Source of the DNA: a virus | Length of the DNA: 64,000 bases | Virus record (IMG/VR): IMGVR_UViG_3300009103_001934 | Span: 114,488-178,487 of that record | Strand: one strand, 5' to 3' | Notes under the pieces: generated by a model | Databases searched by the model: none | What the model was told of the DNA's origin: nothing | What the model saw: only the letters and a program-made list of their open reading frames with translations | Part shown: positions 3,145-49,737 of the stretch, piece by piece | Layout of the letters: the number at the start of each line of letters is the position of its first letter | How positions within the stretch are numbered: the first letter of the stretch is position 1 | Translations under genes and position numbers: made by a program

Positions 3145-3181
3145 TTAGCCGCCAATTTTAATTATTTTATTTATTAAATTT

Positions 3182-4084: not shown

Positions 4085-4107
4085 GAAATCCCTTACAATT
4101 AAAGACG

Positions 4108-5082
4108 ATGAGTGAAACCTACTTCCCAGATATAATTGGTCAGAACCGTGTCAAAAAAGCGTTGGGCTTTTATATTGACGGTTATCAAGAAACGAATTGC
4201 ATACCGCATCTGATGTTTACTGCACCTCGCGGGTGCGGCAAGACTACGATGGCAACTGCTATGGCAAAGAACCTTGTTGGGCCTGACGGTGCGATTAAGC
4301 CTCTTATTACTATCAACTGTTCTACCATCAAGAGCCTCAAGCAGTTTTTCAATATGATTGTGATACCTCATATGGTTGAGCGTGATGCCACCGTGCTGTT
4401 TGACGAATGTTCTGAATTGCCCAAGGATGTGACGATGGCACTACTGACCATCACCAACCCTAATCCAGAGAACCAGAACGAGTTCTCCTATGAGGACTAT
4501 AACGTGGTGTTTGACTTTCGCCGCTTGAGCTTCATGTTCGCCACTACCGAAGGGCAAAGTATCTTCCATGCACTCATGGACAGAATGGAGCGCATCGACT
4601 TGGAAGAATATAAGTTAGATGAACTTGGTAAGATTGTGTTGCTTGGATTAGACGGTTATACTGTCGAGCAAAAAACGCTAGAGAGTATTTCTAACGTCCT
4701 GCGAGGCAACGCCCGTGCTGGTCAGAAAATGGCGATGAAGATGCGCCTATACCTTGATGCTAAAGGTCAGACTCATTTTGCCGACAAGGATTGGAAGGAA
4801 CTTATGGACAAGCTCGGTATCCTGCCGCTTGGCATCTCCGTCCAAGAACTCAACCTCATGCGTTACATGGCGCGGAAGAAGGCAACTCGCCTTACCGAAC
4901 TCGCCGCAATCACTGGACTCTCCAAGGGAGCAATCCAAAAAGATTATGAGTTATATCTCTCCAAAATGGGTCTAATGGAGATACAACCAGAGGGTCGCTC
5001 CCTCACAACAAAAGGATTGGAGTATCTTAATGACCTCGATGGAGTTAAAAAGAACAAGTCTAACAAGGCTAGTAAAAAATAA
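4108..5082 (+). CDS. ruvB: RuvB-like AAA+ branch-migration ATPase
   Basis: DIIGQ, Walker A APRGCGKT, Walker B LFDE, FATTE, LMDRM arginine finger, RGNAR sensor II, C-terminal ELYL...GRSLT; promoter TTGACA-17-TACAAT. Confidence 0.85.
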   Translation: MSETYFPDIIGQNRVKKALGFYIDGYQETNCIPHLMFTAPRGCGKTTMATAMAKNLVGPDGAIKPLITINCSTIKSLKQFFNMIVIPHMVERDATVLFDECSELPKDVTMALLTITNPNPENQNEFSYEDYNVVFDFRRLSFMFATTEGQSIFHALMDRMERIDLEEYKLDELGKIVLLGLDGYTVEQKTLESISNVLRGNARAGQKMAMKMRLYLDAKGQTHFADKDWKELMDKLGILPLGISVQELNLMRYMARKKATRLTELAAITGLSKGAIQKDYELYLSKMGLMEIQPEGRSLTTKGLEYLNDLDGVKKNKSNKASKK

Positions 5083-5110
5083 ATATAAAATAGATGATGA
5101 GCCTATACGG

Positions 5111-5332
5111 ATGTCTGATTACGAATGGCGCGGCACATTAAATAATAGTGATTTATTTGTAGTTATTAAATATAACCTTGGTGCTTGGAAAGTAAAATAT
5201 GCTGAAACAGAATACGATCTAAATAATGTAGATTATATATATGTAGCGCAAGAATGGAGTCCGATGAAGTATATTATAAATAAAGATAAGATAGAAATAA
5301 ATAACTTAATAACATTTTTAGGATGGAAATAA
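5111..5332 (+). CDS. Hypothetical protein (start uncertain)
   Basis: AT-rich ORF; first in-frame ATG beyond the ruvB overlap. Confidence 0.5.
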   Translation: MSDYEWRGTLNNSDLFVVIKYNLGAWKVKYAETEYDLNNVDYIYVAQEWSPMKYIINKDKIEINNLITFLGWK

Positions 5333-5378
5333 ATAAAAATAAACTTGAATTTAGTCAGGAAGTAGGCTAATATATAGA

Positions 5379-5451
5379 TGTGGGTGCAACGCCCACAGTT
5401 CGTTCATCATCATCGAATCCTCCTGCGGGAAACTGCGGGGGGATTTTTTTT
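5379..5451 (+). ncRNA. Candidate ~73-nt small regulatory RNA
   Basis: Promoter TTGAAT(5345)-17-TAATAT(5368); 5' hairpin TGTGGG/CCCACA; unpaired linker GTTCGTTCATCATCATCGA; terminator with G-U pairs valid only on + strand, then T8. Confidence 0.75.
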
Positions 5452-5690
5452 GTATTTTCTTTAAAACAGTGTAAATAATAATAAGACCTTGCTAAATAAA
5501 TAAATAAGGCAAGCTCAACAGGTTATGTTCAAATAAGCTTTGTAGAATAGGTTCGTCAAATATAGAACTGAAATAAAGTAAAAATAAAACAGGCCCAAAT
5601 AAGGTAAGGTTTAAACTAAATGAGAGTCAATCTCAACGTCCCTCCTTTATGCTAATGAGACTCATTCTCAATTTCACCGGTCCCGATGTT

Positions 5691-5793
5691 GGCAATCAAA
5701 ATTCCAAGAAAATGATCGACAAACTATTTTGCCGCTCACGAATGATCGACAAACAAATTTGCCAATCAAAATCTTCCCAAAATGATCGACAAA
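5691..5793. repeat. Helically phased iteron-like repeats
   Basis: AATGATCGACAAA at 5711, 5741, 5781 (30 and 40 bp apart); CAATCAAAAT at 5693 and 5763. Confidence 0.85.
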
Positions 5794-5810
5794 AAAAAGT
5801 AAAAAAAGGC

Positions 5811-5839
5811 TTGCACTAAAATGGGATGTACGGTATACT
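5811..5839 (+). promoter_or_regulatory. Sigma70-type promoter of the long RNA
   Basis: TTGCAC-17-TATACT. Confidence 0.75.
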
Positions 5840-5845
5840 ATTAAA

Positions 5846-6256
5846 ACAGTGAGGGTAACACCTCCACGATCTTTGAGACAATTTAAGAAGGCGACTGTGG
5901 TAGTCCTCACGCAAGTGAGTGCCCTCGCGGGAAAGCCCCCAGTGGAAGCGCGACGAAACTGGACGGTGATACGATACCGGAGGGATGGGGTTCGACTCCT
6001 CACGCCCTAACAATTTAAGCCTTGGGTGACGGAACAAACGTCCGACAGAGGAAACGGCCCAAGCAATTTTTACTCCGGCGACGGTTGGAGTAAGGGAATG
6101 GCTGAATAACCCTCCATCATAAGGGGTAAGGCACAGGGCCGCGCGTTAGAGTGCAATCGTATGAGGCGCGTGGTTCTGGTAGACTGGTAAACTTGAACTG
6201 TATTGTGCACTGGTCTTGATGGTAATGCAGCAATCCATCTTCCCATTAATTTAGCA
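5846..6256 (+). ncRNA. Large structured ncRNA candidate (family unassigned)
   Basis: No + strand ORF of 60 aa or more; dense hairpins (CTCAC-GCAA-GTGAG, CCAGT/ACTGG, CTTGGG/CCCAAG, TTACTCC/GGAGTAA, GATGG/CCATC) and a T-arm-like TGGGG-TTCGACT-CCTCA. Confidence 0.7.
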
Positions 6257-6348
6257 TAATCCTGAGGTTGGTGAAAACCATTAAAGAGATATTAAGCAAC
6301 AACGCCGAAATCCGCCTCTGATTTTTTTTGCCCTAATGTTAATTTTTT

Positions 6349-6412
6349 GCTTGACACGCCGGGACCGGTCCCGGCGCCTGTCAAGCTTTTTTTATTCACA
6401 GCCTGTGAGAAT
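6349..6412. repeat. Early module 1 (TTGACA-GGGACCGGTCCC-TGTCAAGC-T7, DnaA-box match)
   Basis: Palindrome 6361-6372; TTATTCACA 6392-6400. Confidence 0.9.
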
Positions 6413-6650
6413 TTCTTAAAAAGGGGCGATTTCTCCGGTGTGAAATTCGGCGTATATAAGAAACTATTTGACCCCATACCCTGCAAAAACAGTGTCAAGC
6501 TCAAAAACAATTACCCTATATAAACGCATTTAATTAGCCTAATTAAAAAAGATGTGTGTGACGTGCATTTTTTTCTTGCCAGTGATTAGGAAGTGTGAGA
6601 TAATGGTTTTAGTCGATTGAGACATAACTACTAACGAAAGAGAACGAACT

Positions 6651-7586
6651 ATGCCTATTACCGCAAAACAAAGCAAAAACAAAGATTGGGATTTCACCGT
6701 AGCACAGGAGGAGCTTTTCCTGCCTGACGGCAAGAAGTCCGGTTTCTTCGCGTCCCGCCGCCTCGACAACAACGAGGTGCTGGGCTGTCACACTAGCCGC
6801 TACGGCATCGTCCAGAATGGCGACCTAGTGGAAAAAGCCGAGAGTGCTTTTCGCCGCAAGGGATTGGGCGATTTTGAGCGCAACATCTATGTGACTGACG
6901 GCGGAGCCAAGCTGCGCGTCAATTACGACTTCCAAGGTCACGATATTGAAGTGCCAGAAGTGGGTGACAAGATGGGCTTTCGCCTGACCTTGCAAAACTC
7001 ATTTGACCGCTCGCTGCGCGTGTCCTTTGCGCTCGGTATGCTTCGCCTCGTTTGCACCAACGGTATGCAGACGCTCGAAAAGGAATTGGATATGCTCAAG
7101 AAGCACTCCAAGAACTTTGACCTCGGCGCGTTGCTGACTGATGACGCAATCGACAAGGCTATGGCTACGTTCACCAACACGGGGAACACATACGCCGCGC
7201 TGGCTCGCGTTGGAGTTACTCAAGAGCAAGGCATCTTCGCCCTGCAAAACCAAGCCAACACTGGTTTGATTTCTGACAAGGTGCGCGAGGGTATCGCAAG
7301 CGTGTGGAACAACCCACGCGAGGATGGTGCTGACGGTTCGGTTGGTGATGACCGCAACCTCTACCAACTCTACAACGCTGCCACGCAGTACCTCACCAGT
7401 GACAACTTGGTTGACAAGAAGTCTGGCGATGCTGTCGGCACGTTCGAGTCCACCCGCTTCGAGTACGCGAACCGCGTTAGCTCGCAACTGCTCAAGCGGT
7501 TCAACCTCGCCAGCGACAACCCCAAGCGGTTTGACAAACTGGTTGCGGTTGCCAAGGCTGACGGCGTAAAGGTCGAGAACAACTAG
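6651..7586 (+). CDS. DUF932/DUF945-family protein
   Basis: LQNSFDRS...LRLVCTNGM motif; strongly GC-rich codon bias. Confidence 0.85.
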   Translation: MPITAKQSKNKDWDFTVAQEELFLPDGKKSGFFASRRLDNNEVLGCHTSRYGIVQNGDLVEKAESAFRRKGLGDFERNIYVTDGGAKLRVNYDFQGHDIEVPEVGDKMGFRLTLQNSFDRSLRVSFALGMLRLVCTNGMQTLEKELDMLKKHSKNFDLGALLTDDAIDKAMATFTNTGNTYAALARVGVTQEQGIFALQNQANTGLISDKVREGIASVWNNPREDGADGSVGDDRNLYQLYNAATQYLTSDNLVDKKSGDAVGTFESTRFEYANRVSSQLLKRFNLASDNPKRFDKLVAVAKADGVKVENN

Positions 7587-7602
7587 GCCAAACCTACAAA
7601 CA

Positions 7603-7630
7603 CCCCCCGCCTTCGGGCGGGGATTTTTTT
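7603..7630 (+). terminator. Rho-independent terminator
   Basis: CCCCGCC-TTCG-GGCGGGG followed by a T tract. Confidence 0.85.
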
Positions 7631-7649
7631 GCGATTGTGGAAACTTTTT

Positions 7650-7695
7650 GCTTGACATTCGGCGGGACCGGTCCCGATTTTGTCAAGCTTTTTTT
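7650..7695. repeat. Early module 2
   Basis: TTGACA 7652, GGGACCGGTCCC 7664-7675, TGTCAA 7681. Confidence 0.9.
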
Positions 7696-7754
7696 GTGCG
7701 TTTGCGAATAACTTTCTTCTTGACGTAAAAGCGGATGTGTAGTACTATATAAAC

Positions 7755-7991
7755 ATGATGAACGAATTAGATCAACTCAAAGAAGACATTTGCATGAAGA
7801 GCTTCGGTCGCAGCCGAAGTCTCGCGCTAGCCGCAGGGCAGTGTGTTAAGTGTGGAACCTATGACCTCGACTTTCGCGATGAACCATCGCAACGTGAGTA
7901 CAAACTCACCGTGTGGTGTCAGTCGTGCCAAGACGATTTCTTCGGGCTGGATTCGGACGGTGAAATCGCATGGGAGGAGGATGAGGATTAA
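7755..7991 (+). CDS. Small Zn-finger protein, leaderless
   Basis: CVKC...CQSC; ATG 6 nt after -10 TACTAT. Confidence 0.75.
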   Translation: MMNELDQLKEDICMKSFGRSRSLALAAGQCVKCGTYDLDFRDEPSQREYKLTVWCQSCQDDFFGLDSDGEIAWEEDED

Positions 7992-8503
7992 TGGATATCG
8001 CAAACACACTTAAGCGCGAGGTCTATCGCAACCTTCACTTCAGGAACGAGACCGTTTATTCTGTACGTAAGGAAGGCCTTGTAGAGGGGCATGCCCTGAT
8101 GGTCATCATGGACGGAACGACTAAGACCCCAATTAAGTTTGCGGTCGGCCCTAAGGGCAACCAGCGCGTACGTGATGAAGAGCGCAAGAACGTGCACGCT
8201 GTTATCCGCGGGCACATCAACAACGCCGTGTGGTATACAAGTGACATGGATGTGGATGCATTCGAAATGGGTCATGCTAAGGATGCCTGCGAGTACTTTA
8301 AAAAACAGTACATGATCGAGCGTGAGGGATATCGATGGCTTGAGGTTGTATATAATCCTTACAAGTACCGCACCTTCATGACTCGTGACACGGATCCTTT
8401 CAGATCGAATGAAGACGTCTATGAGCCTATCTTTACCGCTCGCACAGTCATCATCGGCGAGACGTGCTGGGCGCAAGTCCGGGCGGAGCACGAGATGAAT
8501 TAA
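7991..8503 (+). CDS. Conserved phage hypothetical protein
   Basis: VYRNLH, RKNVHA, YNPYKY motifs; start overlaps upstream stop. Confidence 0.75.
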   Translation: MDIANTLKREVYRNLHFRNETVYSVRKEGLVEGHALMVIMDGTTKTPIKFAVGPKGNQRVRDEERKNVHAVIRGHINNAVWYTSDMDVDAFEMGHAKDACEYFKKQYMIEREGYRWLEVVYNPYKYRTFMTRDTDPFRSNEDVYEPIFTARTVIIGETCWAQVRAEHEMN

Positions 8504-8519
8504 TATTTTTCCTCCATCA

Positions 8520-8565
8520 GGCGGGTCCGGGTTTTATGTGTTTGACCGGGCCCGCCTACTTTTTT
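8520..8565 (+). terminator. Rho-independent terminator
   Basis: GGCGGGTCCGG...CCGGGCCCGCC followed by a T tract. Confidence 0.7.
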
Positions 8566-8629
8566 GCTTGACATTTCGGGACCGGTCCCGCGGCTTGTCA
8601 AGCTTTTTTTATCCACAACCTGTGAATTA
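8566..8629. repeat. Early module 3 with perfect DnaA box
   Basis: GGGACCGGTCCC 8578-8589; TGTCAA 8596; TTATCCACA 8609-8617. Confidence 0.9.
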
Positions 8630-8679
8630 TTTTTTCATTTTTTTCTTGCCTTTTTCTGCTCAACCTGTATAATGCTCGC

Positions 8680-8808
8680 ATGAAGATTAAAGCAAGAGTA
8701 AGCAAACAAGGATTTATGGGCAGCGCGTCCCGTGAACACAGAGTGAAGAAGGGCAAAGGCTCTTTCACTCGCAAACAAAAACACAAAAAAAGTATTGACA
8801 CAAACTAG
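8680..8808 (+). CDS. arfA: ArfA-like alternative ribosome-rescue factor (42 aa; absent from ORF track)
   Basis: MKIKARVSKQGFMGSASREHRVKKGKGSFTRKQKHKKSIDTN carries the ArfA KKGKGS(Y/F)xRKxKH motif; leaderless behind TTGCCT-16-TATAAT. Confidence 0.7.
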   Translation: MKIKARVSKQGFMGSASREHRVKKGKGSFTRKQKHKKSIDTN

Positions 8809-8827
8809 GATATAGGAGATAATCATA

Positions 8828-9259
8828 ATGATGATGGACGATATAAAACTGACCTACATTCCAGACTCTCACGACTGGATTAAAGTATATTTGCAAGCAC
8901 CTAACGCAGAACTTGCCGAGGCGTGGTTTAATTCCTTTTGGAATCACAACGCTACAAGCCAAGACGAGCCAGAATGGATATTCAAAAACGAGTTGGCATT
9001 TTGTACCACTTGGGACAAGCTAACCAAGGCCATGAATGATATTTTTCTTTTCATCCTTCTTAATGATGATGAAGATGCTTTCAAAGGCGAGGAAGGCGGC
9101 GCGATGCCGTTTGCCAAGGAACTAGCCAAGGCCAAGATTGCAGAGATGAACAAAAAAGATTCATCCATGCGCTACGGTCGCCAAGGTCACGTTTACACAC
9201 TCGGCGATGTTTACACCAACGAGGAAAAGTCATTTTCTTCTGGAACGTGCGACGTTTAA
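8828..9259 (+). CDS. Hypothetical protein, leaderless
   Basis: TTGACA-17-GATAAT then ATGATGATG. Confidence 0.75.
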   Translation: MMMDDIKLTYIPDSHDWIKVYLQAPNAELAEAWFNSFWNHNATSQDEPEWIFKNELAFCTTWDKLTKAMNDIFLFILLNDDEDAFKGEEGGAMPFAKELAKAKIAEMNKKDSSMRYGRQGHVYTLGDVYTNEEKSFSSGTCDV

Positions 9260-9296
9260 GCTTGACCTTTAACCCTCAAACCTTTATTATACTCTG

Positions 9297-10010
9297 ATGT
9301 TGAAATTCAAAGATGCAAACGGTAAACTCAAGAAGATGGCAAAGAAGCTTGGCGTTAAGCTTAAAACCTTCACTCTCCCTGCGGGCTATACTTGCGGCGG
9401 TGCAAAGGATTGCCTCGCGTATGCCGACAGAAAAACGGGCAAAGTGAGAGACGGCAAGGAAACACAATTCCGTTGTTTCATGGCATCGCTCGAAGCCACC
9501 TTTCCAAGTCTCCGCGCTATGGTGTGGGAGAATTACGAGCAGTTACAAGCGGCACTGAAAAACGGCGTTGATGCTTGCGCGGATCTGATCCACAACAGCT
9601 TGCCAAAGAAGTTTGACGTAATGCGCGTTCACGTTGGCGGCGATTACTTCAGCAGGGCGTATTTGCAAGCGTGGATTGAAGTTGCCAAGCGAAACCCTGA
9701 CAAGGTGTTTTACTCTTACAGCAAAAGCTTGCACCTGTTCAAGCAATTTGCGTTACCGGAAAACCTTGTGTTGACCGCTTCCCGTGGTGGCAAGTACGAT
9801 GATTTGATTGACCTCCACGCATGGAAAGAGGCGATTGTCGTATTCAGTGAAGAGGAAGCGGAAGAGCTTGACTTGGAAATTGACCACGACGATTCACACG
9901 CAGCGTTTGGCGCGGAGAATTTCGCGTTACTCATTCACGGCACACAGCCAGCAGGGAGCGCAGCAAGTGAAGCTTTGAAAGTCATAAAGAAAAAGGCAAG
10001 GGCTGCGTGA
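9297..10010 (+). CDS. GP88-like phage protein
   Basis: FTLPAGYTC...C...C, RVHVGGDYFS and FYSYSKS motifs. Confidence 0.75.
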   Translation: MLKFKDANGKLKKMAKKLGVKLKTFTLPAGYTCGGAKDCLAYADRKTGKVRDGKETQFRCFMASLEATFPSLRAMVWENYEQLQAALKNGVDACADLIHNSLPKKFDVMRVHVGGDYFSRAYLQAWIEVAKRNPDKVFYSYSKSLHLFKQFALPENLVLTASRGGKYDDLIDLHAWKEAIVVFSEEEAEELDLEIDHDDSHAAFGAENFALLIHGTQPAGSAASEALKVIKKKARAA

Positions 10011-10069
10011 TGGAATTTATTGTCCTTGTTGCCATCGGGTTGTATTTCGGCGCAAAGCTTAGTCGATAA
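10010..10069 (+). CDS. 19-aa hydrophobic micro-protein
   Basis: MEFIVLVAIGLYFGAKLSR; TGATG overlap with upstream stop. Confidence 0.45.
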   Translation: MEFIVLVAIGLYFGAKLSR

Positions 10070-10083
10070 AAATGACATTTTTT

Positions 10084-10128
10084 GCTTGACAGCCGGCGGG
10101 ACCGGTCCCGCGAGATGTCAAGCTTTTT
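10084..10128. repeat. Early module 4
   Basis: TTGACA 10086, GGGACCGGTCCC 10098-10109, TGTCAA 10116. Confidence 0.9.
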
Positions 10129-10214
10129 CTTTGTTATTTTTTTATTTGACACAAAGTCGGAAGTGGGGTATTATATAAACAGTGCGAACGAACTAACTAA
10201 AACTAAAAAAACTG

Positions 10215-10682
10215 ATGAACAACCTACATTCATATACTAACTACATCACTGGCACAGAACTTGAGAACGGAAAGATTCTCCTGTATGCTGGCAAAACACG
10301 CAACGGTATCGATGACCGTAAGAAAGGCAAAATGGCTTGCGGATTCATCGCTGGCGTTGGCCTAGATGGTCGTCTGTTTGACACCGTCCATTCTAACACT
10401 AACACCAAAAACGATAAGCTCACGGAGCAACGTCACATCAACACGATTCGTGCCGTGGCGCAATTACTCCCTGACGTTATCGTTGCTGGTAACACTTATG
10501 ACGATGGATTTTATGGGGGAATCATTTCGTCCATCAGTCCTAGCGTCTACGACAAAGTCGTAAGCTGGGTACAGGGTACGCGCACTATGACAGAAAAGCG
10601 CATGGTGGCGAACAAGCGAAAGCTGGCTCGAAAGCTCGCTCAAGTGAAGCGAGCTAGGCAAGCAAAGAAGGCTTTGGCTTAA
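10215..10682 (+). CDS. Hypothetical protein with basic C-terminal helix
   Basis: 155-aa ORF behind a TTGACA promoter. Confidence 0.75.
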   Translation: MNNLHSYTNYITGTELENGKILLYAGKTRNGIDDRKKGKMACGFIAGVGLDGRLFDTVHSNTNTKNDKLTEQRHINTIRAVAQLLPDVIVAGNTYDDGFYGGIISSISPSVYDKVVSWVQGTRTMTEKRMVANKRKLARKLAQVKRARQAKKALA

Positions 10683-10782
10683 CCCTAGTAGGGGGGAGAG
10701 AGTTTGGCGTGAATGCTTCGCCTCTTGAGTGGCTCTCTCCCCTCTTGACTTTTCAACAGAAACCCATTATACTTTTATACTT

Positions 10783-11256
10783 ATGGAGAGAATACATATA
10801 ATTATTGGATTGATAATCTTCTTTATTATTAGCATAACCGCTTCGGGCGATGAAGTCTTAACAAGGGACGAGCGTATTGTTGCACTCACTATACTGGGAG
10901 AAGCCCGTGGTGAAGGTAAAAAAGGAATGTATGCTGTCGCCTGTGTAATTCAGAAACGCGCGTCAGAACGCAACCTCACGCCAGCAAAGGTATGCCACCA
11001 ACCTTATCAGTTCAGCATTTGGAACGCTGGAAAGGGTAAGATAAAAAAAGAAAGTGAGTTGTATTATTTGTGGAAATCTAAATCCATGATGTACGCCAGA
11101 GAGTTAGCGAGAACAGTTTGCAAAGGTAAATTGTTAGATCAAAAATTCACTGGTAACGCAAATCACTATTGCAGAAAAGAAATCAATAACTATTGGACAA
11201 AGAAAGGAACAATAACAAAGGTAATTGGAAATCATAAATTTTTCAAATTACGATAG
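10783..11256 (+). CDS. SleB/Hydrolase_2-type cell-wall hydrolase with N-terminal TM segment
   Basis: ALTILGEARGEG, AVACVIQKR, PYQFSIWN, ANHY, IGNHKFF. Confidence 0.85.
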   Translation: MERIHIIIGLIIFFIISITASGDEVLTRDERIVALTILGEARGEGKKGMYAVACVIQKRASERNLTPAKVCHQPYQFSIWNAGKGKIKKESELYYLWKSKSMMYARELARTVCKGKLLDQKFTGNANHYCRKEINNYWTKKGTITKVIGNHKFFKLR

Positions 11257-11287
11257 GCTTCAAATAATAAATCAGTGCAAATATGAC

Positions 11288-11345
11288 CCGTCCCGAATAA
11301 GGGGCGGGTTTTTTTAGGGCAAAAAAAAGGCCCGCTTTCGCGGGT
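11288..11345. terminator. Back-to-back terminators between convergent genes
   Basis: CCCGTCCC...GGGGCGGG-T6 and A7-GGCCCGC-TTTC-GCGGGTT. Confidence 0.65.
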
Positions 11346-11350
11346 TGTGT

Positions 11351-11557
11351 TTAGCCCTCCAAACTGGAGGGGGTGAAATCACCGTGTCCGGTGATCTCAA
11401 GGGCACGCCCGTGATCATACTCACGGATATGCTCCTCGCGCATCCGCACGGTGCGACCATCATCCTTGAGGATGAGCCACTTGCCGTGGCGCGGAGAGGC
11501 GGCGACCACGCCAACGTAACCGTTGACGTCTTCGACTTCCATTCCTAATGTAATCAT
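11351..11557 (-). CDS. Small SH3/KOW-like protein
   Basis: LGMEVEDVNGYVGVV pattern. Confidence 0.65.
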   Translation of the reverse strand: MITLGMEVEDVNGYVGVVAASPRHGKWLILKDDGRTVRMREEHIREYDHGRALEITGHGDFTPSSLEG

Positions 11558-11608
11558 AATGATATTGATAGGGCGCGAATTCTTAGGCAGTCGCGCTCGC
11601 CCATGATG

Positions 11609-11818
11609 TTAGTCCTTCCAGACCATGTCCAGATATTCACCGTAAGTAGCAAGGTAATCCTGCCATTCGGTGTCCGTCATTAGCGGCCCATGGATTGCAA
11701 CCAGATTCGCCCAACGATCTTGGGTTTCCTGTTCGCGTGTCCACTCTTCATGCTCAAGCTGAGCTTCGATGTCTGCACTTATGGTCTCTTCTATGGTTGG
11801 CATCATGTCGTTCATCAT
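11609..11818 (-). CDS. Small acidic protein, leaderless (MMNDMM...)
   Basis: Minus-strand TTGTGC-17-TATATT 7 nt before ATG at 11818. Confidence 0.7.
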   Translation of the reverse strand: MMNDMMPTIEETISADIEAQLEHEEWTREQETQDRWANLVAIHGPLMTDTEWQDYLATYGEYLDMVWKD

Positions 11819-11891
11819 TAGAAAGAATATAACACGCATCTAAGAAAAGCACAAGGAAAAAATTCAAAAACTATTAACAAAAAAAATGCAA

Positions 11892-11968
11892 TTGTGAGCA
11901 AAAAAGACTTGACAGCCGCGGGACCGGTCCCGCTTATTGAGACCGAGTCTCACTAAAGTTGTGAATAA
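11892..11968. repeat. Early module 5
   Basis: GGGACCGGTCCC 11920-11931; TGAGAC-CGA-GTCTCA 11938-11952; TGTGAATAA 11960. Confidence 0.9.
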
Positions 11969-12011
11969 CTTTCTCCTTGACAATTACATCCTTTTGTAGT
12001 ATATTATTTAC

Positions 12012-12200
12012 ATGATGAACGATCCATATAGCCAGATAACCAGCGGAGACCGTGACAACCTGCGTGCGGAGTTTGACGAACAAATGGCGATAATTGACGG
12101 CGCGAATAACCCTGACATGATTTGGGTTCGTGGCACCCTGCCCTATGATGATGAGGGTGTACGGTGCGGGTGCGAAGACTACCCCTGTTGTGGGCATTAG
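12012..12200 (+). CDS. Small protein with C-terminal CxCEDYPCCGH metal-binding motif, leaderless
   Basis: TTGACA-17-TATATT then ATG after 6 nt. Confidence 0.75.
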   Translation: MMNDPYSQITSGDRDNLRAEFDEQMAIIDGANNPDMIWVRGTLPYDDEGVRCGCEDYPCCGH

Positions 12201-12204
12201 TAAC

Positions 12205-12277
12205 TTGTGAGTAAAAAAGACTTGACAGCCGCGGGACCGGTCCCGTTGAGACTCAGTCTCATTAAGATTGTGAATAA
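12205..12277. repeat. Early module 6
   Basis: GGGACCGGTCCC 12233-12244; TGAGAC-TCA-GTCTCA 12247-12261; TGTGAATAA 12269. Confidence 0.9.
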
Positions 12278-12328
12278 CTTTTTGAAAAAACCGCTTGACT
12301 TTTTGGCATTTATGGGTTATATTTAAGC

Positions 12329-12562
12329 ATGATTAAAACGAACATGAAAACTTACAACGTAGAGTTTACGACAGCATTCGCTGGCTCTCCGTTCGTCAAC
12401 ATCGTTCTTGAAGCCAAGGACGAAAAACAAGCTGAATGGGTTGCCCGTAACCTTTGCCGTTTCGGTTACATTAGCAACATCACAAAAACTGATGAAGTTG
12501 CTGCTTTTACCGAAGAAACTCACGCTTTTGCTTATGATGAAGATTATGAGATTTATTCATAG
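12329..12562 (+). CDS. Small protein, paralogue family X (divergent member)
   Basis: YNVEF...VNIVLEAKDEKQAEWV resembles the 14315 and 15454 products. Confidence 0.7.
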   Translation: MIKTNMKTYNVEFTTAFAGSPFVNIVLEAKDEKQAEWVARNLCRFGYISNITKTDEVAAFTEETHAFAYDEDYEIYS

Positions 12563-12598
12563 GTGGGACTGCGGATGTCCCACCCAGTATGCTATACT
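12563..12598 (+). promoter_or_regulatory. Operator-type promoter 1 (GTGGGAC-N7-GTCCCAC, TG-C-TATACT)
   Basis: Four near-identical copies (12563, 14017, 14492, 15651). Confidence 0.8.
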
Positions 12599-12604
12599 AG
12601 ACGC

Positions 12605-13060
12605 ATGATAATTAAGAACGAGATGAAAGAAAAACTAAAACCACTATTTGACCTAGACGGAACCCTTATCCGCGAGGAGCGCGGCTCAGATCGCCTATTT
12701 GATTTCCTACGGCCTCACGCTATTCTTAATCTCACAGAACACGACCTCACTCCTCTCGGAGTGTTAGTCAGAGACTCAGGCAAAGAATTTGACATTCTTA
12801 CAGCACGCGGCCCAGAGAATGCGCAGTTTATCCGTATAGCTCTTGAAGCTCTCGGATTCAACGTCGGTCGAATCGTAACCGTAGGCGTAGACATTAACGA
12901 GCCAAAGGATTGGGCTAATGTTAGCAGCAAAAGAGTAGCGGCAAAGAAAATCAGAATTGCCAAATTCGTCCAAAGGAAATTGGTTGACAACGATGCTAGG
13001 AATCTGGTAGGATTAGGAGAGTTAGGAGAGCTAGTAGCTCAAGACCAAACAGAGTTTTAA
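12605..13060 (+). CDS. HAD-superfamily phosphatase-like protein
   Basis: FDLDGTL motif I, ILTARG motif II, VDND. Confidence 0.75.
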   Translation: MIIKNEMKEKLKPLFDLDGTLIREERGSDRLFDFLRPHAILNLTEHDLTPLGVLVRDSGKEFDILTARGPENAQFIRIALEALGFNVGRIVTVGVDINEPKDWANVSSKRVAAKKIRIAKFVQRKLVDNDARNLVGLGELGELVAQDQTEF

Positions 13061-13061
13061 G

Positions 13062-13316
13062 ATGATGAATAAGATTATTACAATTAAAGCAAAAGCCAAC
13101 GCAAGCCGGCGCACTAAAAACCGCATTCGTGGATTTGGCCCACGTTTCATCGTAGAGAAGAAACATGACCTTAATGACATCATGGCCCTTATCGGCAAGC
13201 GTGATTCAGAGTCTTGGTTGCTGCGCGAAGTGGGCGGCCCAGACGGTGATCCGTGGTTTGGCTGGCTGCCAGCTAATGAATTTGAAATTGTTGAAACTGA
13301 AGGATTTTGGTCTTGA
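13062..13316 (+). CDS. Conserved small phage protein
   Basis: NASRRTKNRI...GWLP. Confidence 0.7.
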   Translation: MMNKIITIKAKANASRRTKNRIRGFGPRFIVEKKHDLNDIMALIGKRDSESWLLREVGGPDGDPWFGWLPANEFEIVETEGFWS

Positions 13317-13349
13317 CATTTAATCGGAAAACCCATATACTATAAACAG

Positions 13350-13574
13350 ATGATGAAGAAACACAACATACAAAACGCAAGCGTATTTGCCACAAAGCAA
13401 TTACGCGACAATCTTAACAAAGTGCTTACTCGCAAAGAGCGGCAACAACTTGACGAAAAAGATGCTAAAACAAAATGGTATCTTGAATTGATGATTGCTG
13501 CTTGTCTCGGTGCTGCTCTTGCCCTTGGCTTTGTAGTCGCTCACGGTATGCTCACAACTGACTGGACTTGGTAA
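13350..13574 (+). CDS. Small single-TM protein
   Basis: LMIAACLGAALALGFVVA. Confidence 0.7.
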   Translation: MMKKHNIQNASVFATKQLRDNLNKVLTRKERQQLDEKDAKTKWYLELMIAACLGAALALGFVVAHGMLTTDWTW

Positions 13575-13580
13575 AGAACG

Positions 13581-13691
13581 ATGAAAACACTATTCGAAGC
13601 AATTGACTCCCTTGTGATGCCACTCACATTCTTTATTATGATGCACCTTGTTGTGCTTTACATTATTATTCCTTTAATTATTTGGCTTTAA
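13581..13691 (+). CDS. 36-aa hydrophobic micro-protein
   Basis: MKTLFEAIDSLVMPLTFFIMMHLVVLYIIIPLIIWL. Confidence 0.5.
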   Translation: MKTLFEAIDSLVMPLTFFIMMHLVVLYIIIPLIIWL

Positions 13692-13705
13692 CAAAAAACA
13701 AACCT

Positions 13706-13822
13706 ATGCAAACTAAAACAAAAAAAGATTGGACACAAGCTCTGTTTGTGGGAAACATCGCAACCGTAACATTTATTGTCGGCGTGATCGTCGGTCAATT
13801 TGTCAAAGTCATAATTATGTGA
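13706..13822 (+). CDS. 38-aa single-TM micro-protein
   Basis: MQTKTKKDWTQALFVGNIATVTFIVGVIVGQFVKVIIM. Confidence 0.5.
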   Translation: MQTKTKKDWTQALFVGNIATVTFIVGVIVGQFVKVIIM

Positions 13823-13895
13823 TTTTGATAGGGGTCTGAAAACCTACGCTTGAGCCTTTGAGGTCTGACCTGTAGCGACACAGCGTGATGACTAC

Positions 13896-13932
13896 GACCC
13901 CACCCCCCTAGGGGTACCCCCCGGGGGGGGTC
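13896..13932. repeat. Chain of overlapping G/C palindromes
   Basis: CCCCTAGGGG, GGGGTACCCC, CCCCCCGGGGGG within GACCCC...GGGGTC. Confidence 0.8.
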
Positions 13933-13942
13933 TAAACTTTTT

Positions 13943-13989
13943 GCTTGACATCCGGCGGGACCGGTCCCGCTTATTGCGACTCGGTCTCA
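13943..13989. repeat. Early module 7
   Basis: GGGACCGGTCCC 13957-13968; TGCGAC-TCG-GTCTCA. Confidence 0.9.
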
Positions 13990-14016
13990 GTAAAACTTTT
14001 TTTAATTATCTTATGG

Positions 14017-14052
14017 GTAGGACTGCGGATGTCCCACCCTCTGTGCTATACT
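14017..14052 (+). promoter_or_regulatory. Operator-type promoter 2
   Basis: GTAGGAC-TGCGGAT-GTCCCAC, TGCTATACT. Confidence 0.8.
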
Positions 14053-14058
14053 ATACGC

Positions 14059-14262
14059 ATGATGATTAAAGAAGATAAGAAACCAACATACACCCTCTGG
14101 AACGGTGTGCAACTCATCGCCACCTACCCACACACACGTGAGGGCATGAATGCAGCCATGCTACGTGCATCAGAGCTAGGCATAGGGGCCAAGCTATACT
14201 CATCACGTGATGACCTAGTGTGGAGCGCACGCATGGCAGATGACATGATGGATTGTGAATAA
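14059..14262 (+). CDS. Small hypothetical protein, leaderless
   Basis: ATG 6 nt after -10; stop codon lies in the TGTGAATAA box. Confidence 0.7.
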   Translation: MMIKEDKKPTYTLWNGVQLIATYPHTREGMNAAMLRASELGIGAKLYSSRDDLVWSARMADDMMDCE

Positions 14263-14314
14263 CTTTCTTAAAAAACCGCTTGACTTTTTGACATTAATGA
14301 GCTATATTATACGT

Positions 14315-14491
14315 ATGTTAAACAAGATAGAAAGCATATTCACAGTAACATTCACCAACGACAGTACCGTGTTCATTAAGGCAAGGGATAGGGGACACGC
14401 GCGCCGCATCGTGGAGCGGAACGGTAGCACATGGACACGCGCTGATGAGAGCGTTGAAATGGTGATTAAAAAAATTGAAAGAAGTTGCTAG
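14315..14491 (+). CDS. Small protein, paralogue family X
   Basis: FTVTFTNDSTVFIKARDRGHARRIVE, nearly matching the 15454 product; leaderless. Confidence 0.75.
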   Translation: MLNKIESIFTVTFTNDSTVFIKARDRGHARRIVERNGSTWTRADESVEMVIKKIERSC

Positions 14492-14527
14492 GTAGGACAG
14501 CAGATGTCCCACCTCGTATGCTATACT
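14492..14527 (+). promoter_or_regulatory. Operator-type promoter 3
   Basis: GTAGGAC-AGCAGAT-GTCCCAC, TGCTATACT. Confidence 0.8.
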
Positions 14528-14545
14528 AGACGCAGTTAAAAGATT

Positions 14546-14836
14546 ATGGAAAAGAACAAGATGAACGAAACGATGACAGTAGAACAAGAAGCCCAACTCC
14601 TCCTTAATCAGGATGTACGCGTGACATTCGCGCAAAGCCAATTTTGGAACTGCACAGGTCGTGTGCGTAACATCATGGCCGATGGTCGCACACTTGAGAT
14701 TGACCTTGATTGGGACGGCAAGACCGTTCTTCTCGATGTCACCTTCGTGGGTGAGATTCAAGAGCGGACACAGTTCGCCAAGACCGAGCAAAGCCTCGGC
14801 CCAATCGCTAACAGTGTTGTAAAGTCTACCCTTTAA
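14546..14836 (+). CDS. Small SH3/Sm-like beta protein
   Basis: LLNQDVRVTF...TGRVRNIMADGRTLEIDLD. Confidence 0.65.
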   Translation: MEKNKMNETMTVEQEAQLLLNQDVRVTFAQSQFWNCTGRVRNIMADGRTLEIDLDWDGKTVLLDVTFVGEIQERTQFAKTEQSLGPIANSVVKSTL

Positions 14837-14837
14837 G

Positions 14838-15080
14838 ATGAACTACCATTATCAATTCGGCATGATTAAAACCACATCAAACAAAGAGCCTGTTGTAACT
14901 GATTTAGATAGTCAGTTTATGACTATCGACGGAGTGCTGCACTCTATTATCAGCCATCATTCATTTGATGATTTTGGTGCTACGTTGGACACTTTCAAAG
15001 TGATTAACTACGCTGGAACCATTCGAGAGATTTACTCTTTTGATGAGTGCGAAACATTCACCTTTGACAACGGAGAATAA
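14838..15080 (+). CDS. Hypothetical protein
   Basis: 80-aa ORF translationally adjacent to the upstream gene. Confidence 0.65.
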   Translation: MNYHYQFGMIKTTSNKEPVVTDLDSQFMTIDGVLHSIISHHSFDDFGATLDTFKVINYAGTIREIYSFDECETFTFDNGE

Positions 15081-26043: not shown

Positions 26044-26403
26044 ATGTTAAAAATATATTGTCAAAAATGCGGGGGCTTAAATGCTTATGTCTCAGAAAAG
26101 CCAAAATTCTGCCAAAAATGTGGTAATACTTTCGGCTCAATAGGCGCACCAAAAAAACTTGAAAAACAGGCGCGAGCTTTTGCTGAAGATGAAGATTTAG
26201 AAATACATCATATCCCCGATATTGATGGATTGTTGGTAGACATAGATGTAGCCGGACCCAGTAGTAGCACAATCGGTAATATTGCCGGAACGAATAAAGA
26301 AGGATTAAAAATAGAGCGGAGAGAGTTATCTCCGGAAGAAGCCAATATGGACCCCGTGGCTGAGTTAAAAAGAGAAGGGTCAACACTAAGACAAAATGAA
26401 TAA
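26044..26403 (+). CDS. Zn-ribbon protein
   Basis: CQKCG...KPKFCQKCG. Confidence 0.75.
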   Translation: MLKIYCQKCGGLNAYVSEKPKFCQKCGNTFGSIGAPKKLEKQARAFAEDEDLEIHHIPDIDGLLVDIDVAGPSSSTIGNIAGTNKEGLKIERRELSPEEANMDPVAELKREGSTLRQNE

Positions 26404-27124
26404 AAAAAAGCCTAGCAAAAAAGCTAAGGCGCAAGCAAAGAAAAAAAAGGAATTAAGGTTTGAGGACTGCTTAGGGATAATTAACGAAGAGATAGCGAAA
26501 AGGAGAGGAAAATGGAATTTATCGGTTATAGCTTGGATGGATTTTGAAGATGTATCACAGATACTAAGAATACACATTTATAGAAAATGGCATCTTTATG
26601 ATCAAACCAAAAATCTAAAGCCATGGATTAGGACAATAATTGGGAATCAAATTAAAAATTTAGTTAGAAATAACTATACTAATTTTGTTAAACCCTGTGC
26701 TAAATGCGCTGCAGCTGTAGAAGAGCATGGTTGCCTAATTTATGAGCAACAGTGCAGCGCTTGCCCATTATACAAAAATTGGGAAAAAAATAAAAAAAGT
26801 GGATACCAAGCAAAAATGCCCTTATCTCTTGAAAACCACTCTCAAGAAGTTTATCATTTACCAACGCATAATGAATTTAATCTTGAGATATCTATTAAAA
26901 ATTTAAATAATAAGATGCAGGAAGTTTTAAAGCCTCACGAATGGAAAATTTATTGCTATTTATATGTTGATAACTTATCGGAGTTAGAGGTAGCAAAGAA
27001 AATGGGCTACAAAACTTCAGAAAAGAATAGGTCCCCGGGGTATAAACAAATTAAAAATGTTAAAAAGAAAATCATATTAAAAGCCAAACAGTGTTTGGAG
27101 AACGACGAAATAGATATATATTAA
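26396..27124 (+). CDS. Phage RNA polymerase sigma-70-like factor (probably late sigma)
   Basis: DFEDVSQILRIHIYRKWHLYD, region-2-like WIRTIIGNQIKN, C-terminal HTH SELEVAKKMGY; Cys-rich insert. Confidence 0.7.
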   Translation: MNKKKPSKKAKAQAKKKKELRFEDCLGIINEEIAKRRGKWNLSVIAWMDFEDVSQILRIHIYRKWHLYDQTKNLKPWIRTIIGNQIKNLVRNNYTNFVKPCAKCAAAVEEHGCLIYEQQCSACPLYKNWEKNKKSGYQAKMPLSLENHSQEVYHLPTHNEFNLEISIKNLNNKMQEVLKPHEWKIYCYLYVDNLSELEVAKKMGYKTSEKNRSPGYKQIKNVKKKIILKAKQCLENDEIDIY

Positions 27125-42504: not shown

Positions 42505-44046
42505 ATGGCAGATAACACCTATAGCCCGCAAACCCCGCCAATACAGGATTTAGATTATAAATCTTTCGGTCCGGATAGCATGGACGAAAACAAAAAACTG
42601 ATGGTTTATAACGATGGGTCCGTATTGGTTGAAAATATAGAAGAGCGAACTGCGGACGGGCTAAGCTACGAATTGGATAAAAAGAATAATTATGTTTATT
42701 TTTCAAATAACTTAGATGCCAATACTAAGGTAAAATATATCCCTAAAAACGTAGATAAAGTTTATTGTACTACTATTAATAAAACCTTTTCTATCAAAGG
42801 GGCTTTGGCTGTTTTTAAAAATGACGTAAGAAAGTTTATTGTTAAAAATTTAGATAGATACAAAACATCTAAGAAGTCACTCAAAAAAGAGATAGACAAG
42901 ATCCTACTAAAGAAAAATCAATTTCTTTGGACCGAAAAAAGACTAAGTAGCGAATGGAACAAAACTTACGTTGATAGCGTTACTCTAGGACCGTATAGCT
43001 GCGACACCACCCTAACCGTTACCAAAGATATAGAAATGATTAATGACTTAATAGTTATTAAAACAGGGGATTGGGGCCAGCTTTATGACTCGAAAACAAA
43101 AAAGATGAACACGGTAGCTCGCGCAGGAAAAATTGTTTGGGTATCTCCCCACGAAATTTTAAATTATTCCGGAGAGGCAAATTATTATTCAAGCGGTGAA
43201 GTATGGACCTATAACACAACTAACAGCGGTGTGTATTCAGGAGAAACTTTTTTGAATGTAAGTTATGGAGTAGGAAACAATAGGGAATCTTACGGTTTAT
43301 CTTCTCGGTTTATAAAAATTCCAAAAGACACTCAGATTAAGACTGAATTTCCATATGAAGAAATCCCAAGAGACGAAACACAATTATTTCTTGACACTCG
43401 TCAGGGGGTGGGGATTGAAAAACAATTTTTTAATGGTATATATTCAGAGTGGGATTGGGCTCAAAGGGTATTAACTGGGACTTGGGATGGAGTCGTTCCT
43501 TCGGGTTCATATATTGAATTGCAAACTTGGTCTACAAACCCTCAGTTCGTTGGCTTTAATGGAGAAATTACTGTTAAGCCTGTAGATACCACTTTAGTCG
43601 AGGATATTGATTTGTCTTACAATATAAGCGCTACAGCGTCGGATTTAAATTATCAAGCTTCAGTGAGAAAGGCGGTACAAAAGGCCAAAAATGTTTTTTA
43701 TAAAAAATTGAACAAACACTTGGTCTCTAAAGGCCTAAAGAAAAAATCTTCAAACCTTAAGAGGTATGATAAGATGCTGGAAAGAGTAGCTCAAAATGTA
43801 TACGATGGATTATCTTTTGTGAGAAATGAAAATATAGCAAAAATACAAGGCTTAGAAAGTAACCCCTTAGATGGACCGATATATTACGACGGCACAGCCA
43901 AAATGTATGGAGGAAGTAAGGAAGAGGCAGACTATGATTACTCACGAACAAAATCACAAAGAAGTTATTTAGGCTTGAATCCATCAAGCACGTCGCAATC
44001 TACCTCATCCAAGACGAACGCTGGAGACATGGGAGGAAGTTATTAA
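42505..44046 (+). CDS. Large hypothetical virion-associated protein
   Basis: Start after a GTGTAA motif; the upstream ORF-track extension crosses the terminator. Confidence 0.75.
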   Translation: MADNTYSPQTPPIQDLDYKSFGPDSMDENKKLMVYNDGSVLVENIEERTADGLSYELDKKNNYVYFSNNLDANTKVKYIPKNVDKVYCTTINKTFSIKGALAVFKNDVRKFIVKNLDRYKTSKKSLKKEIDKILLKKNQFLWTEKRLSSEWNKTYVDSVTLGPYSCDTTLTVTKDIEMINDLIVIKTGDWGQLYDSKTKKMNTVARAGKIVWVSPHEILNYSGEANYYSSGEVWTYNTTNSGVYSGETFLNVSYGVGNNRESYGLSSRFIKIPKDTQIKTEFPYEEIPRDETQLFLDTRQGVGIEKQFFNGIYSEWDWAQRVLTGTWDGVVPSGSYIELQTWSTNPQFVGFNGEITVKPVDTTLVEDIDLSYNISATASDLNYQASVRKAVQKAKNVFYKKLNKHLVSKGLKKKSSNLKRYDKMLERVAQNVYDGLSFVRNENIAKIQGLESNPLDGPIYYDGTAKMYGGSKEEADYDYSRTKSQRSYLGLNPSSTSQSTSSKTNAGDMGGSY

Positions 44047-45821
44047 TGAGCTTTAAAACAAATAGAGTTAACAGAAATTTTGTTTTAACAACAAATTTAT
44101 ATTTTAATAGTAGCTCTTGGAATAGGTCTGGAGATACTACTCCTAGATTTTATTTAAAACCTTCGAACCTTACTCATCTAGAAAAAGTAGCTTTTAACTA
44201 CAGCGGAGCGAAAGCTAATGACTATGTAAAACGAGGGCATAAATTTTGGGGATATAAAAAAGATGATACCCTTACTAATAAAGAGGTCCTAGAGCATTAT
44301 GATCAAATTAAAACATCTTATCCATATGGATTTGTACAGGGAGATATAGCGAGCGAGAATAAATATAATATTGATGTAAAAAATAATGATGCTTTTCAGT
44401 CTTTTTACAAATCTTATTGGGATAATAATCCAGATAAGATAAAACAACCCAAAAAGGATACGAAAGGCGAATGGGATCACCCTCACCCTTATATATCTTT
44501 TACGACAAATGAAATTATTACCGCGAAACATAATGTAGGTACGGTCCCGGTTTTAGAGGCGGGAATACCGACATGGGCCGAATATGGCGTTGGCACCCCT
44601 TACTATTCTCAACCAGAAGCCTATTCATGCATGGATCAAAACTTAAGCGCAGTTGCTTATGATTATTATGGCGATAATAAACTCGCTTTTATTATTGAAG
44701 GCGGCGCGCATATGCCCTTAGTGCTAGCTAACAGTGGTCATTCTTATACATTTAATTTACAAAGTGGCGCTACTCCATGGGCTACCTCTAATGTGTGGCC
44801 CACAGGGGTCGGAGGAGCACACTCAGGAATAGATTTACACTTTAGCACTGGAAGGGATGGCACTTGGAATGGTTTCGACAAATTGGATGACGGCGTAGCC
44901 GGTGACGCGTTTATTAGAAGAGCATACGAAAAACCGGGCACACACACCTATTACGTATCCTCTGCAGTTAAAGACGGTGATCCAAATACCGGGCATCCTT
45001 GGTATAATTCAGGTAGCGTTTCTGGATTTGTTATAAGTGGTGAAAGCCAACAGTCTGGACCATTAAATTTATATAGGGGTTGGACCTATGTTTTCAATCT
45101 AACTGGATCCTCTAACGTGTCTGAGCGAGGAACGGATGGCAATTCACAAAACGCTGGAGGGGACTATGATCGTAGCGCGTTATACTTCACTAATAGCCTT
45201 GTATCGGGCGAGTGGGGAAATGAATCTGAAAACGAACTTGGCGGCGGGATTTGGGCAACCGGTATCGGCGCAGGAATTTATACAATTAGTTTGGACTGGG
45301 ACTGTCCAGACACCTTCTTTTATCAAAATAGATATGCTGCGTATTATGGCGGCGTAGTAAACGTAACTGATCCTCCTACAGCTTTGGGTGATAAGCCGGG
45401 GCAAATAGTAAGGATCACCTTAAGCGGGGGTAAAGACGAATATCTATTTTATTATTCTCCTAATCAATCTGGAATGGGAGGATTAATGATACTAAAGGGA
45501 ACTTGCGACGGTAAAGTGGCGAGTATTTAAATAAAAAACTTTTTGCATAACATTTTAATATGTGTTATAATAAATTAGATTGGCCGTATTGGGTGAACTC
45601 GGTAGAACTCTCTCGTAGACAATACCGAGCCAAGCCGGAAGTGGGCTTAGTGCTTCCGGAAGGTGTAGAGACTAGAGGGTGAGTCCCAACAATAACCCCT
45701 CCACGAGCGCCCAACACCGTAAAGGTGAAGATATAGTCCGAACTGCATGGCGACATGTAGAAGTCGTAATTAAAAAAGCGTCGATAACAACTTGGACTAC
45801 GAGATGAGTGCAGCGTACTAA
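44046..45821 (+). CDS. Gly/aromatic-rich structural protein split by a group I intron (exons 44046-45512, 45795-45821)
   Basis: Splicing joins ...TCDG to DYEMSAAY-stop in frame; the unspliced ORF stops at 45530. Confidence 0.7.
45513..45794 (+). ncRNA. Group I self-splicing intron (IA-like, no homing endonuclease)
   Basis: P4 CTCGGT/ACCGAG, P3 TTGGGTG/CGCCCAA, R GTAGAGACTA, P7.1 hairpin, S AAGATATAGTCC, P9 CTGCATG-GCGA-CATGTAG, terminal G; P1 ACGGU/GCCGU with U-G at the splice site. Confidence 0.9.
45543..45571 (+). promoter_or_regulatory. Consensus-like sigma70 promoter inside intron L1
   Basis: TTGCAT-17-TATAAT with extended TG. Confidence 0.7.
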
Positions 45822-45874
45822 CTAGTGTCTATGCAGACATTAGCCCAGTATACTCAATTTTGTGTCGGCTAAAC

Positions 45875-46264
45875 ATGAGTACCAAGAAAACAACGAAAAA
45901 GACCAAGGCCTCTGAGAAGAAACTCAAAGTAAAAGAGATGTCTCAAACTCACGGAATGGTTGAAGGGAAAAAGTATGAGCCCACGACCTTGGATCAAGTA
46001 TGGGGCGATGATGGACTGTCGAAATATCAAACGATGGACGCGGCCGAATACGAGAGCAAAGTTGAAAATATGCCTTTAGCGGACCTTAAGGAAGAGGCTA
46101 TAAGAGTAGGTCTTTTGCCTGTGGATAATGCAGAAATGCTGAAAGAAAGATTACTTAGGCAGTTTAATGTCCATATTAGTTCTTATCGTAAGCCGGTGGA
46201 AAATCCCCAACAAGCTCATAAGGTAAGCCCGGAAATAAATAAAATCCTTAAGGAAGGTAGATAG
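45875..46264 (+). CDS. Conserved hypothetical protein
   Basis: TTLDQVWGDDG...GLLPVDN...LLRQF. Confidence 0.75.
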   Translation: MSTKKTTKKTKASEKKLKVKEMSQTHGMVEGKKYEPTTLDQVWGDDGLSKYQTMDAAEYESKVENMPLADLKEEAIRVGLLPVDNAEMLKERLLRQFNVHISSYRKPVENPQQAHKVSPEINKILKEGR

Positions 46265-49642: not shown

Positions 49643-49685
49643 AAAGCCTCCTTACCCCCCGTTTTCGGAACGGGGGGTTTTTTTA
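49643..49685 (+). terminator. Rho-independent terminator
   Basis: ACCCCCCGTT-TTCGG-AACGGGGGGT followed by T tract. Confidence 0.8.
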
Positions 49686-49737
49686 TATTTACATTTCTTA
49701 CCATTTAAAAATATAATAACTGAGGTATTTTACGTGT

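Follow-up and report, generated by a model that had tools for sequence, protein, structure and literature searches.

Group I ribozymes are textbook selfish introns, and a locus in the genome of a large uncultured marine phage raises the question of what such a ribozyme does at a place where it appears to interrupt no gene. To answer it we analyzed a stretch of 64,000 nt of this genome, called the window below and used for all coordinates. Using Rfam a match to the group I family (RF00028) was found on the plus strand at 45523-45760 (61.6 bits, E 3e-13, gathering score 50), which bears out the complete catalytic core that a first-pass annotation, made from the letters alone, had read at this position. 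It is the only group I core in the 178-kb phage genome, and RF00028 is the sole family at gathering score in an Rfam scan of the ribozyme stretch. The ribozyme sits in the late structural module, together with a terminase gene (29788), a gene for a cement-like protein (40637) and baseplate-like genes located downstream of it. A blastn comparison with annotated phage records returned short core matches only. A second structured RNA, a manA RNA motif (Rfam RF01745, 77.9 bits), is present at 6071-6249 (plus strand) in the early region of the phage.

From the Rfam alignment, covariation counts and the homology of its 3' end to classical relatives, the catalytic core could be placed at 45589..45794 on the plus strand, as are all elements of the unit described below. 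It comprises P3 (45589-95/45708-14), P4 (45599-604/45623-28), P6a, P7 (45670-74/45734-38), P7.1 (45675-79/45697-701), P8 (45715-18/45724-27), P9 (45743-60) and P9.1 (45763-82), and it is closed by the omega-G at 45794, assigned by the same homology. In a plain MAFFT alignment of 14 diverged members of the family described below (alignment A2), the core helices P3 to P9 are each 96-100% paired with compensatory changes present, and the bases of P7 and J8/7 are identical to those in about 90 classical introns. In about 100 classical relatives, whose P9 and P9.1 have the same sequences, the intron closes with (G/A)TAACA-N-TG and a coding exon follows, and in the window this context ends at G45794. 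In addition, the two bases before G45794 can pair with J7/9 to give a P9.0-like G.U/A-U pairing ahead of the omega-G. Judged by this likeness the 3' splice site is after G45794, in agreement with the exon that the first-pass annotation had let begin at 45795.

The classical phage introns of RF00028 (L007/L008 and about 100 viral contigs) share the sequence of J8/7, P7, P9 and P9.1 with the window, and common to both are the P3-P9 core, the P7.1 insert, a GNRA-capped P9, the P9.1 loop UAAUUAAAAAA and the TAACA..TG context of the omega-G. The classical relative in L007 and L008, which shares P4 to P7.1 almost base for base, is located within another gene and carries an insertion of about 1 kb downstream of P3', which may be an endonuclease ORF. 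Several contigs (L152, L096, L132, L144, L154 and L180) carry two or three classical introns of the P9.1 type within about 1-2 kb, many of them in capsid-like genes with an EWQTD motif.

The gene upstream of the ribozyme encodes a structural protein of 494 aa (44046..45530) that belongs to no known family and has its own stop codon at 45528-45530. The ribozyme had been proposed to be an intron of this gene, with a 5' splice site after 45512 at which ACGGU (45508-45512) would pair with GCCGU (45583-45587) across an L1 of about 70 nt, and with splicing as a possible switch of the C-terminus from KVASI to DYEMSAAY. Part of this proposal stands, as the complementarity is real (5 bp including a U.G wobble) and the arithmetic is correct: a codon boundary of the 494-aa ORF lies at 45512, the junction would be in frame and the sequence from 45795 onward would add DYEMSAAY and a stop. 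One homologue even ends in CDGDYSTFSGYGA, loosely resembling CDG plus DYEMSAAY. To judge the splice site and the long L1 we turned to relatives, and pattern scans of viral and marine phage as well as metagenome contigs yielded 48 distinct copies in addition to that of the window. Of all homologues of the 494-aa protein the closest (53% identity) is found in L001, where the same RNA is about 95% identical in nucleotide sequence; this conserved stretch begins at the promoter and extends to the start codon of the following gene, and the coding flanks have diverged. In this closest relative the proposed helix is broken, with AUGGU opposite GCCUU and thus a U-U mismatch, and the register (searched as A, the complement of N10 and GGU within 150 nt upstream) occurs in only 2 of 43 family members.

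The C-terminal tails speak against the splice site as well. KVASI in the window matches KALSV and QVIDF of its relatives, and as these tails are mutually homologous KVASI is the real C-terminus. The upstream homologues in L004, L006 and L009 have a complete tail and a stop, have no GGU splice site and are followed by the same ribozyme, and L046, L059 and L066 carry another gene at the upstream position. With several relatives showing intact, homologue-like tails without a 5' splice site, and a structured non-coding segment at the place of the supposed exon 2, the isoform switch is not supported. The segment was also considered as a coding exon and rejected, since the codons read as DYEMSAAY coincide with strands of covarying helices, and the codon-like changes within them, which fall at first and second positions without any third-position bias, fit these helices. 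An ordinary cis-splicing intron in the 494-aa gene, whose long L1 would contain a promoter that is either a relic or regulatory, is therefore the least probable of all readings that we considered. Judged by the comparison with relatives the ribozyme unit interrupts no gene and lies between two intact genes. In the strict sense, in which a group I intron interrupts a gene and its ligation restores a frame or an RNA, the unit is not an intron. For neither of the neighbouring proteins, the 494-aa upstream and the 129-aa downstream one, was a Pfam or PHROG family found. Among bacterial genome contigs the pattern of guide, P3 and P4 gave 16 matches, and those that were read lie within ORFs, are not followed by a core and are due to chance.

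The doubt that the first-pass annotation had expressed about its own P1 was justified, as a different partner for the guide is found on the other side of the core. The internal guide UUGGCC (45580..45585) lies 3 nt before P3 with no P2 in between, and it can form six pairs, all of them 100% paired in the 14 sequences, with the strand GGCU/AA at 45867..45872. Both covariation and RNAalifold identify the latter as the substrate strand of P1, and RNAalifold found this closing helix between guide and tail unaided. The G45582.U45870 wobble is kept in 14 of 14 aligned copies and marks the predicted 5' splice site, the point of guanosine attack, between U45870 and A45871. In the same alignment two pairs of the guide-tail helix have changed on both sides, with neighbouring pairs going from G-C to A-U once and from U-A to C-G twice. 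The former is a double compensatory change in L066 (guide UUGACC, tail GGUUAA), and the U-A to C-G change is found in L006 and L167. At the third P1 pair 41 of the 49 distinct members have C-G and 8 have U-A, with GACC guides always facing GGUU tails (8) and GGCC guides facing GGCU (41), although the selection rule of this set demanded pairing at four P1 positions and the 14-sequence alignment gives the only unbiased count. For the whole structure 97.0% of the cells of this alignment are paired, compared with 35-38% when the partners are slid by 1-3 columns; 39 of 79 pairs have changed on both sides and none of 500 shuffles reaches any of these measures.

The predicted 3' splice site at the omega-G (45794) thus lies upstream of the U.G site at 45870, 76 nt apart on the same strand. 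Intron and exon are thus permuted, and the break falls in loop L1. A weak point of this P1 is its short exon side, with 3 bp plus the wobble. One member, L228, has the tail GGAU instead of GGCU, which breaks a P1 pair, and may be a decaying copy or contain a sequencing error. More distant stand-alone ribozymes were seen in L214 (reverse-complement orientation, about 3130-3640) and L259, in which a GGCC guide abuts P3 behind an AT-rich, promoter-like upstream stretch and in which elements of P5, P6 and P9 differ; in L214 a longer 3' segment ends in AAGGCUAAAC, 9 nt before an ATG. These two may represent a second permuted subfamily.

Between the two predicted splice sites lies a segment of 76 nt (45795..45870), the 'exon' of the permuted layout and its predicted circular product. 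According to folds and covariation it forms a rod built from E1 (GAC with GUC, 45795-97/45864-66), E2 (45799-805/45857-63), E3 (45806-09/45852-55) and a hairpin (45822-30/45835-43). Minimum free energy folds of all 14 members show the same rod, and two of the exon helices (helices 12 and 13) together contain 18 pairs with changes on both sides in the 14-sequence alignment. Its last four bases are the GGCU of the substrate strand, and its length is kept at 73-80 nt in the 49 members. The shape of the rod is kept between subfamilies, but its sequence is poorly conserved, as expected if it were only a spacer. Through E1 the two splice sites come to lie 4 bp from each other, and this helix has to open before ligation can occur. 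An origin of the segment from a tRNA or tmRNA was considered and dropped, as ARAGORN found nothing in tripled exons of the 14 members.

Upstream of the guide the unit carries a promoter of the sigma-70 type (45543..45571), identified by its sequence, by a promoter scan and by its equivalents in relatives. Direct reading and the scan agree with the TTGCAT-17-TG-TATAAT arrangement noted before: TTGCAT at 45543-45548 is the -35 element, followed by a 17-nt spacer, with TG at 45563-45564 and TATAAT, the -10 element, at 45566-45571. The start is predicted at about 45578, 2 nt before the guide. Pairs of the form TTG(A/C)(C/A)(T/A)-17-TATAAT-like recur in 11 of the first 14 members with unrelated spacers, no clear promoter being found in the other three (L046, L052 and L059), and the -10 element mostly lies 7-18 nt before the guide. 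A promoter score of at least 9.5 is reached by 31 of 45 members versus 7.8% of random 93-nt windows of the phage genome, and a score of at least 11 by 8 of 45 members versus 0.4% of random windows. The idea that a promoter launches a ribozyme devoid of a 5' exon, starting at its guide, is therefore supported by the recurrence of the -35 and -10 elements at one position in most family members, whose spacers and flanks are unrelated.

The ribozyme promoter resembles the intergenic early TTGACA-17 promoters of the phage, and near-consensus TTGACA-17-TAnnnT promoters are concentrated in intergenic gaps of the early region (4071-15064 in the window; 84-112 kb in the genome). In the late module only two comparable sites are present, that of the ribozyme and one at 49688-49717 just after a strong terminator (49654-49678). 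Given the recurring promoter and the early-region bias of near-consensus sites, the ribozyme looks like a transcription unit for the host polymerase planted in the late module. The phage also encodes a sigma-like protein of its own (26396-27124, plus strand), which matches sigma-70 region 2 (Pfam PF04542, E 6e-07).

Taken together we consider it probable that the locus holds a group I ribozyme gene standing on its own, with a circular permutation in L1, and that this natural permuted intron-exon arrangement ('self-targeting') would cut and back-splice as predicted; we infer both chemical steps from established group I chemistry. Transcription from the sigma-70-type promoter would start at the guide or a few nucleotides before it. 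Free guanosine or GTP would then attack after U45870, a cut that would fall 4 nt ahead of the start codon (ATG) of the downstream lysine-rich gene and leave a G on the 5' end of its message. In the second step the 3'-OH of U45870 would attack the 3' splice site after G45794 and join U45870 to G45795, by which the segment 45795-45870 would be released as a covalently closed, mostly double-stranded circle of 76 nt. In this circle E1 would close a GGCU tetraloop at the junction, giving a dumbbell-like rod, and the linear ribozyme (about 45578-45794) would be released as well. Read-through transcripts of the upstream late gene would be processed likewise. As far as can be predicted from the arrangement of the splice sites, this back-splicing probably releases a 76-nt RNA ring.

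The gene on the other side of the predicted cut encodes a protein of 129 aa (45875..46264), its ATG following 4 nt after the cut, with a lysine-rich N-terminus and the motifs SQTHG and LDQVWGDDG. A protein of 118-139 aa, in which the lysine-rich N-terminus and both motifs are conserved, follows the tail in 47 of 48 members at a distance of 2-134 nt, usually within 35 nt. An AlphaFold model of the 129-aa protein (pLDDT 71) gave weak matches to SAP/HeH domains, which bind nucleic acids, only (E > 0.4); the SAP/HeH-like helix pair comprises residues of about 68-104, and its likenesses include the RNA stem-loop-binding SAP domain of 3'hExo. For the flanking proteins, a profile search against PDB sequences gave nothing meaningful.

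This close neighbour is the basis for the main rival of the back-splicing ribozyme, namely a one-step processing of the downstream message, in which the permuted P1 is used for the first reaction only, by guanosine attack or hydrolysis after U45870. It would provide the lysine-rich mRNA with a defined, G-tagged 5' end and uncouple it from upstream transcripts, the rod merely holding the substrate strand beside the guide and the circle being a by-product or never made. The almost invariable position of the lysine-rich gene, the rod that varies in sequence between subfamilies and keeps its shape, and P10 fit such a role. P10, the pairing expected to bring the 3' splice site into register for the second step, has no covariation support and is not claimed here: between exon bases 1-4 and the bases 5' of the guide it is only 2-5 bp long and no better than shuffled pairings (3.08 of 4 pairs versus 3.02), and E1 competes with it. 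However, the whole apparatus of the 3' splice site, with TAACA..TG, the P9.0-like pairs and the omega-G, has been kept as in the splicing relatives. Moreover, about six members show a terminator-like hairpin and a T-run between the tail and the lysine-rich gene, and the processed 3' product can therefore not be the message in every case. We regard one-step processing as unlikely overall, and as the alternative that deserves most attention.

Two further explanations can be weighed against the same covariation. A trans-acting ribozyme would splice its 3' segment onto other RNAs with a GGCU-like site or cleave them, and the expected chimera would be a foreign RNA followed by GACUACGAG. Such a ribozyme would profit from a guide that opens the predicted transcript, an arrangement shared with engineered trans-splicing ribozymes, and from many cellular sites matching a guide this short; yet the guide covaries with a conserved target in cis, E1-E3 hold this target beside it and no conserved external target was identified. 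This makes trans action very improbable, and the free attack on ACGGU sites elsewhere that the first-pass annotation had envisaged is not supported, given the conserved, covarying cis target at 45867-45872. Equally, little speaks for a catalytically dead relic, that is a former intron whose exons have decayed and which has been kept as a structured spacer or promoter carrier, because the core bases common to about 90 classical introns are intact and compensatory change has preserved every helix in hosts with no more than 35-55% identity between their flanking proteins; we give it hardly any credence.

If the locus is a ribozyme that cuts and back-splices, the question is which of its products matters. 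In favour of a control of the lysine-rich gene's message one can point to the constancy with which this gene follows the ribozyme. In favour of the small RNA itself are the conserved rod and, in some relatives, terminators placed immediately behind the cut, and such terminator-like hairpins directly after the tail (L046, L239, L275, L284 and L285) were also counted as support for an independent unit. From these comparisons we propose, tentatively and with more doubt than confidence, a dedicated phage gene for a small circular RNA, in which the 76-nt dumbbell would be the functional product, possibly together with its SAP-like neighbour, and in which the same reaction would set the 5' end of the mRNA.

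Compared with known systems, the classical phage introns described above are ORF-less or endonuclease-bearing, reside inside genes (e.g. capsid-like genes), have the P1 strand of the 5' exon on the upstream side and separate their guide from P3 by a P2 hairpin, whereas the ribozyme in the window has neither P2 nor a 5' exon and finds its P1 substrate strand 76 nt downstream of the omega-G. The lariat-capping ribozyme GIR1 differs in its remodelled core and in its reaction, a branching in one step. By its marks, which are this remodelled core, the lack of a P1 splice-site wobble and a branching triplet behind the analogue of the omega-G, the phage element is no GIR1, as it retains a canonical core, the U.G pair and the omega-G. 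The two are alike in being group I-derived and without a 5' exon, and in lying directly upstream of an ORF, where GIR1 shapes the 5' end of the mRNA (PMC8637638). Circularly permuted group II ribozymes of bacteria also have reversed splice sites and release a circle of 15-86 nt with poorly conserved sequence (Roth et al. 2021, PMC8637638), but they belong to another ribozyme class with branching chemistry and are not promoter-adjacent to one constant protein gene.

The nearest natural parallel among group I introns is ND5-717 from mushroom coral mitochondria, which has a permuted precursor that is back-spliced via a circular exon-containing RNA and which was called the first natural case by its authors (Chi et al. 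2019, PMC6545197). In ND5-717 the break lies in P8 of a giant intron of 18-19 kb and the product is a protein-coding mRNA (PMC6545197), while the phage element is a promoter-driven unit of 290 nt with the break in L1 and a small non-coding rod as exon. The same order of guide, core, 3' splice site, cargo and guide-complementary site is found in an engineered design that combines a ribozyme with a downstream target and yields circular cargo (Cui et al. 2023, PMC10415121). Such engineered permuted systems are man-made, whereas the phage layout is natural, conserved and, as seen from the covariation, under selection. The published literature that we searched yielded no permuted group I ribozyme that occurs naturally in phages or bacteria, and the layout was found in print for engineered RNAs and one coral mitochondrial intron only.

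In summary, a ribozyme that interrupts nothing, has its own promoter and is held by selection at the same place in the genomes of diverged phages would count as domesticated, with a job of its own. This raises the question of which role an RNA ring made by a ribozyme, or an mRNA 5' end cut by a ribozyme, plays in infection. With a size of about 215 nt and no P2 it would also be a compact natural scaffold for the production of circular RNA. If the proposed mechanism is true, viruses that infect bacteria make small circular RNAs by ribozyme back-splicing, and phages have reached the wiring that RNA engineers invented for circular RNA.
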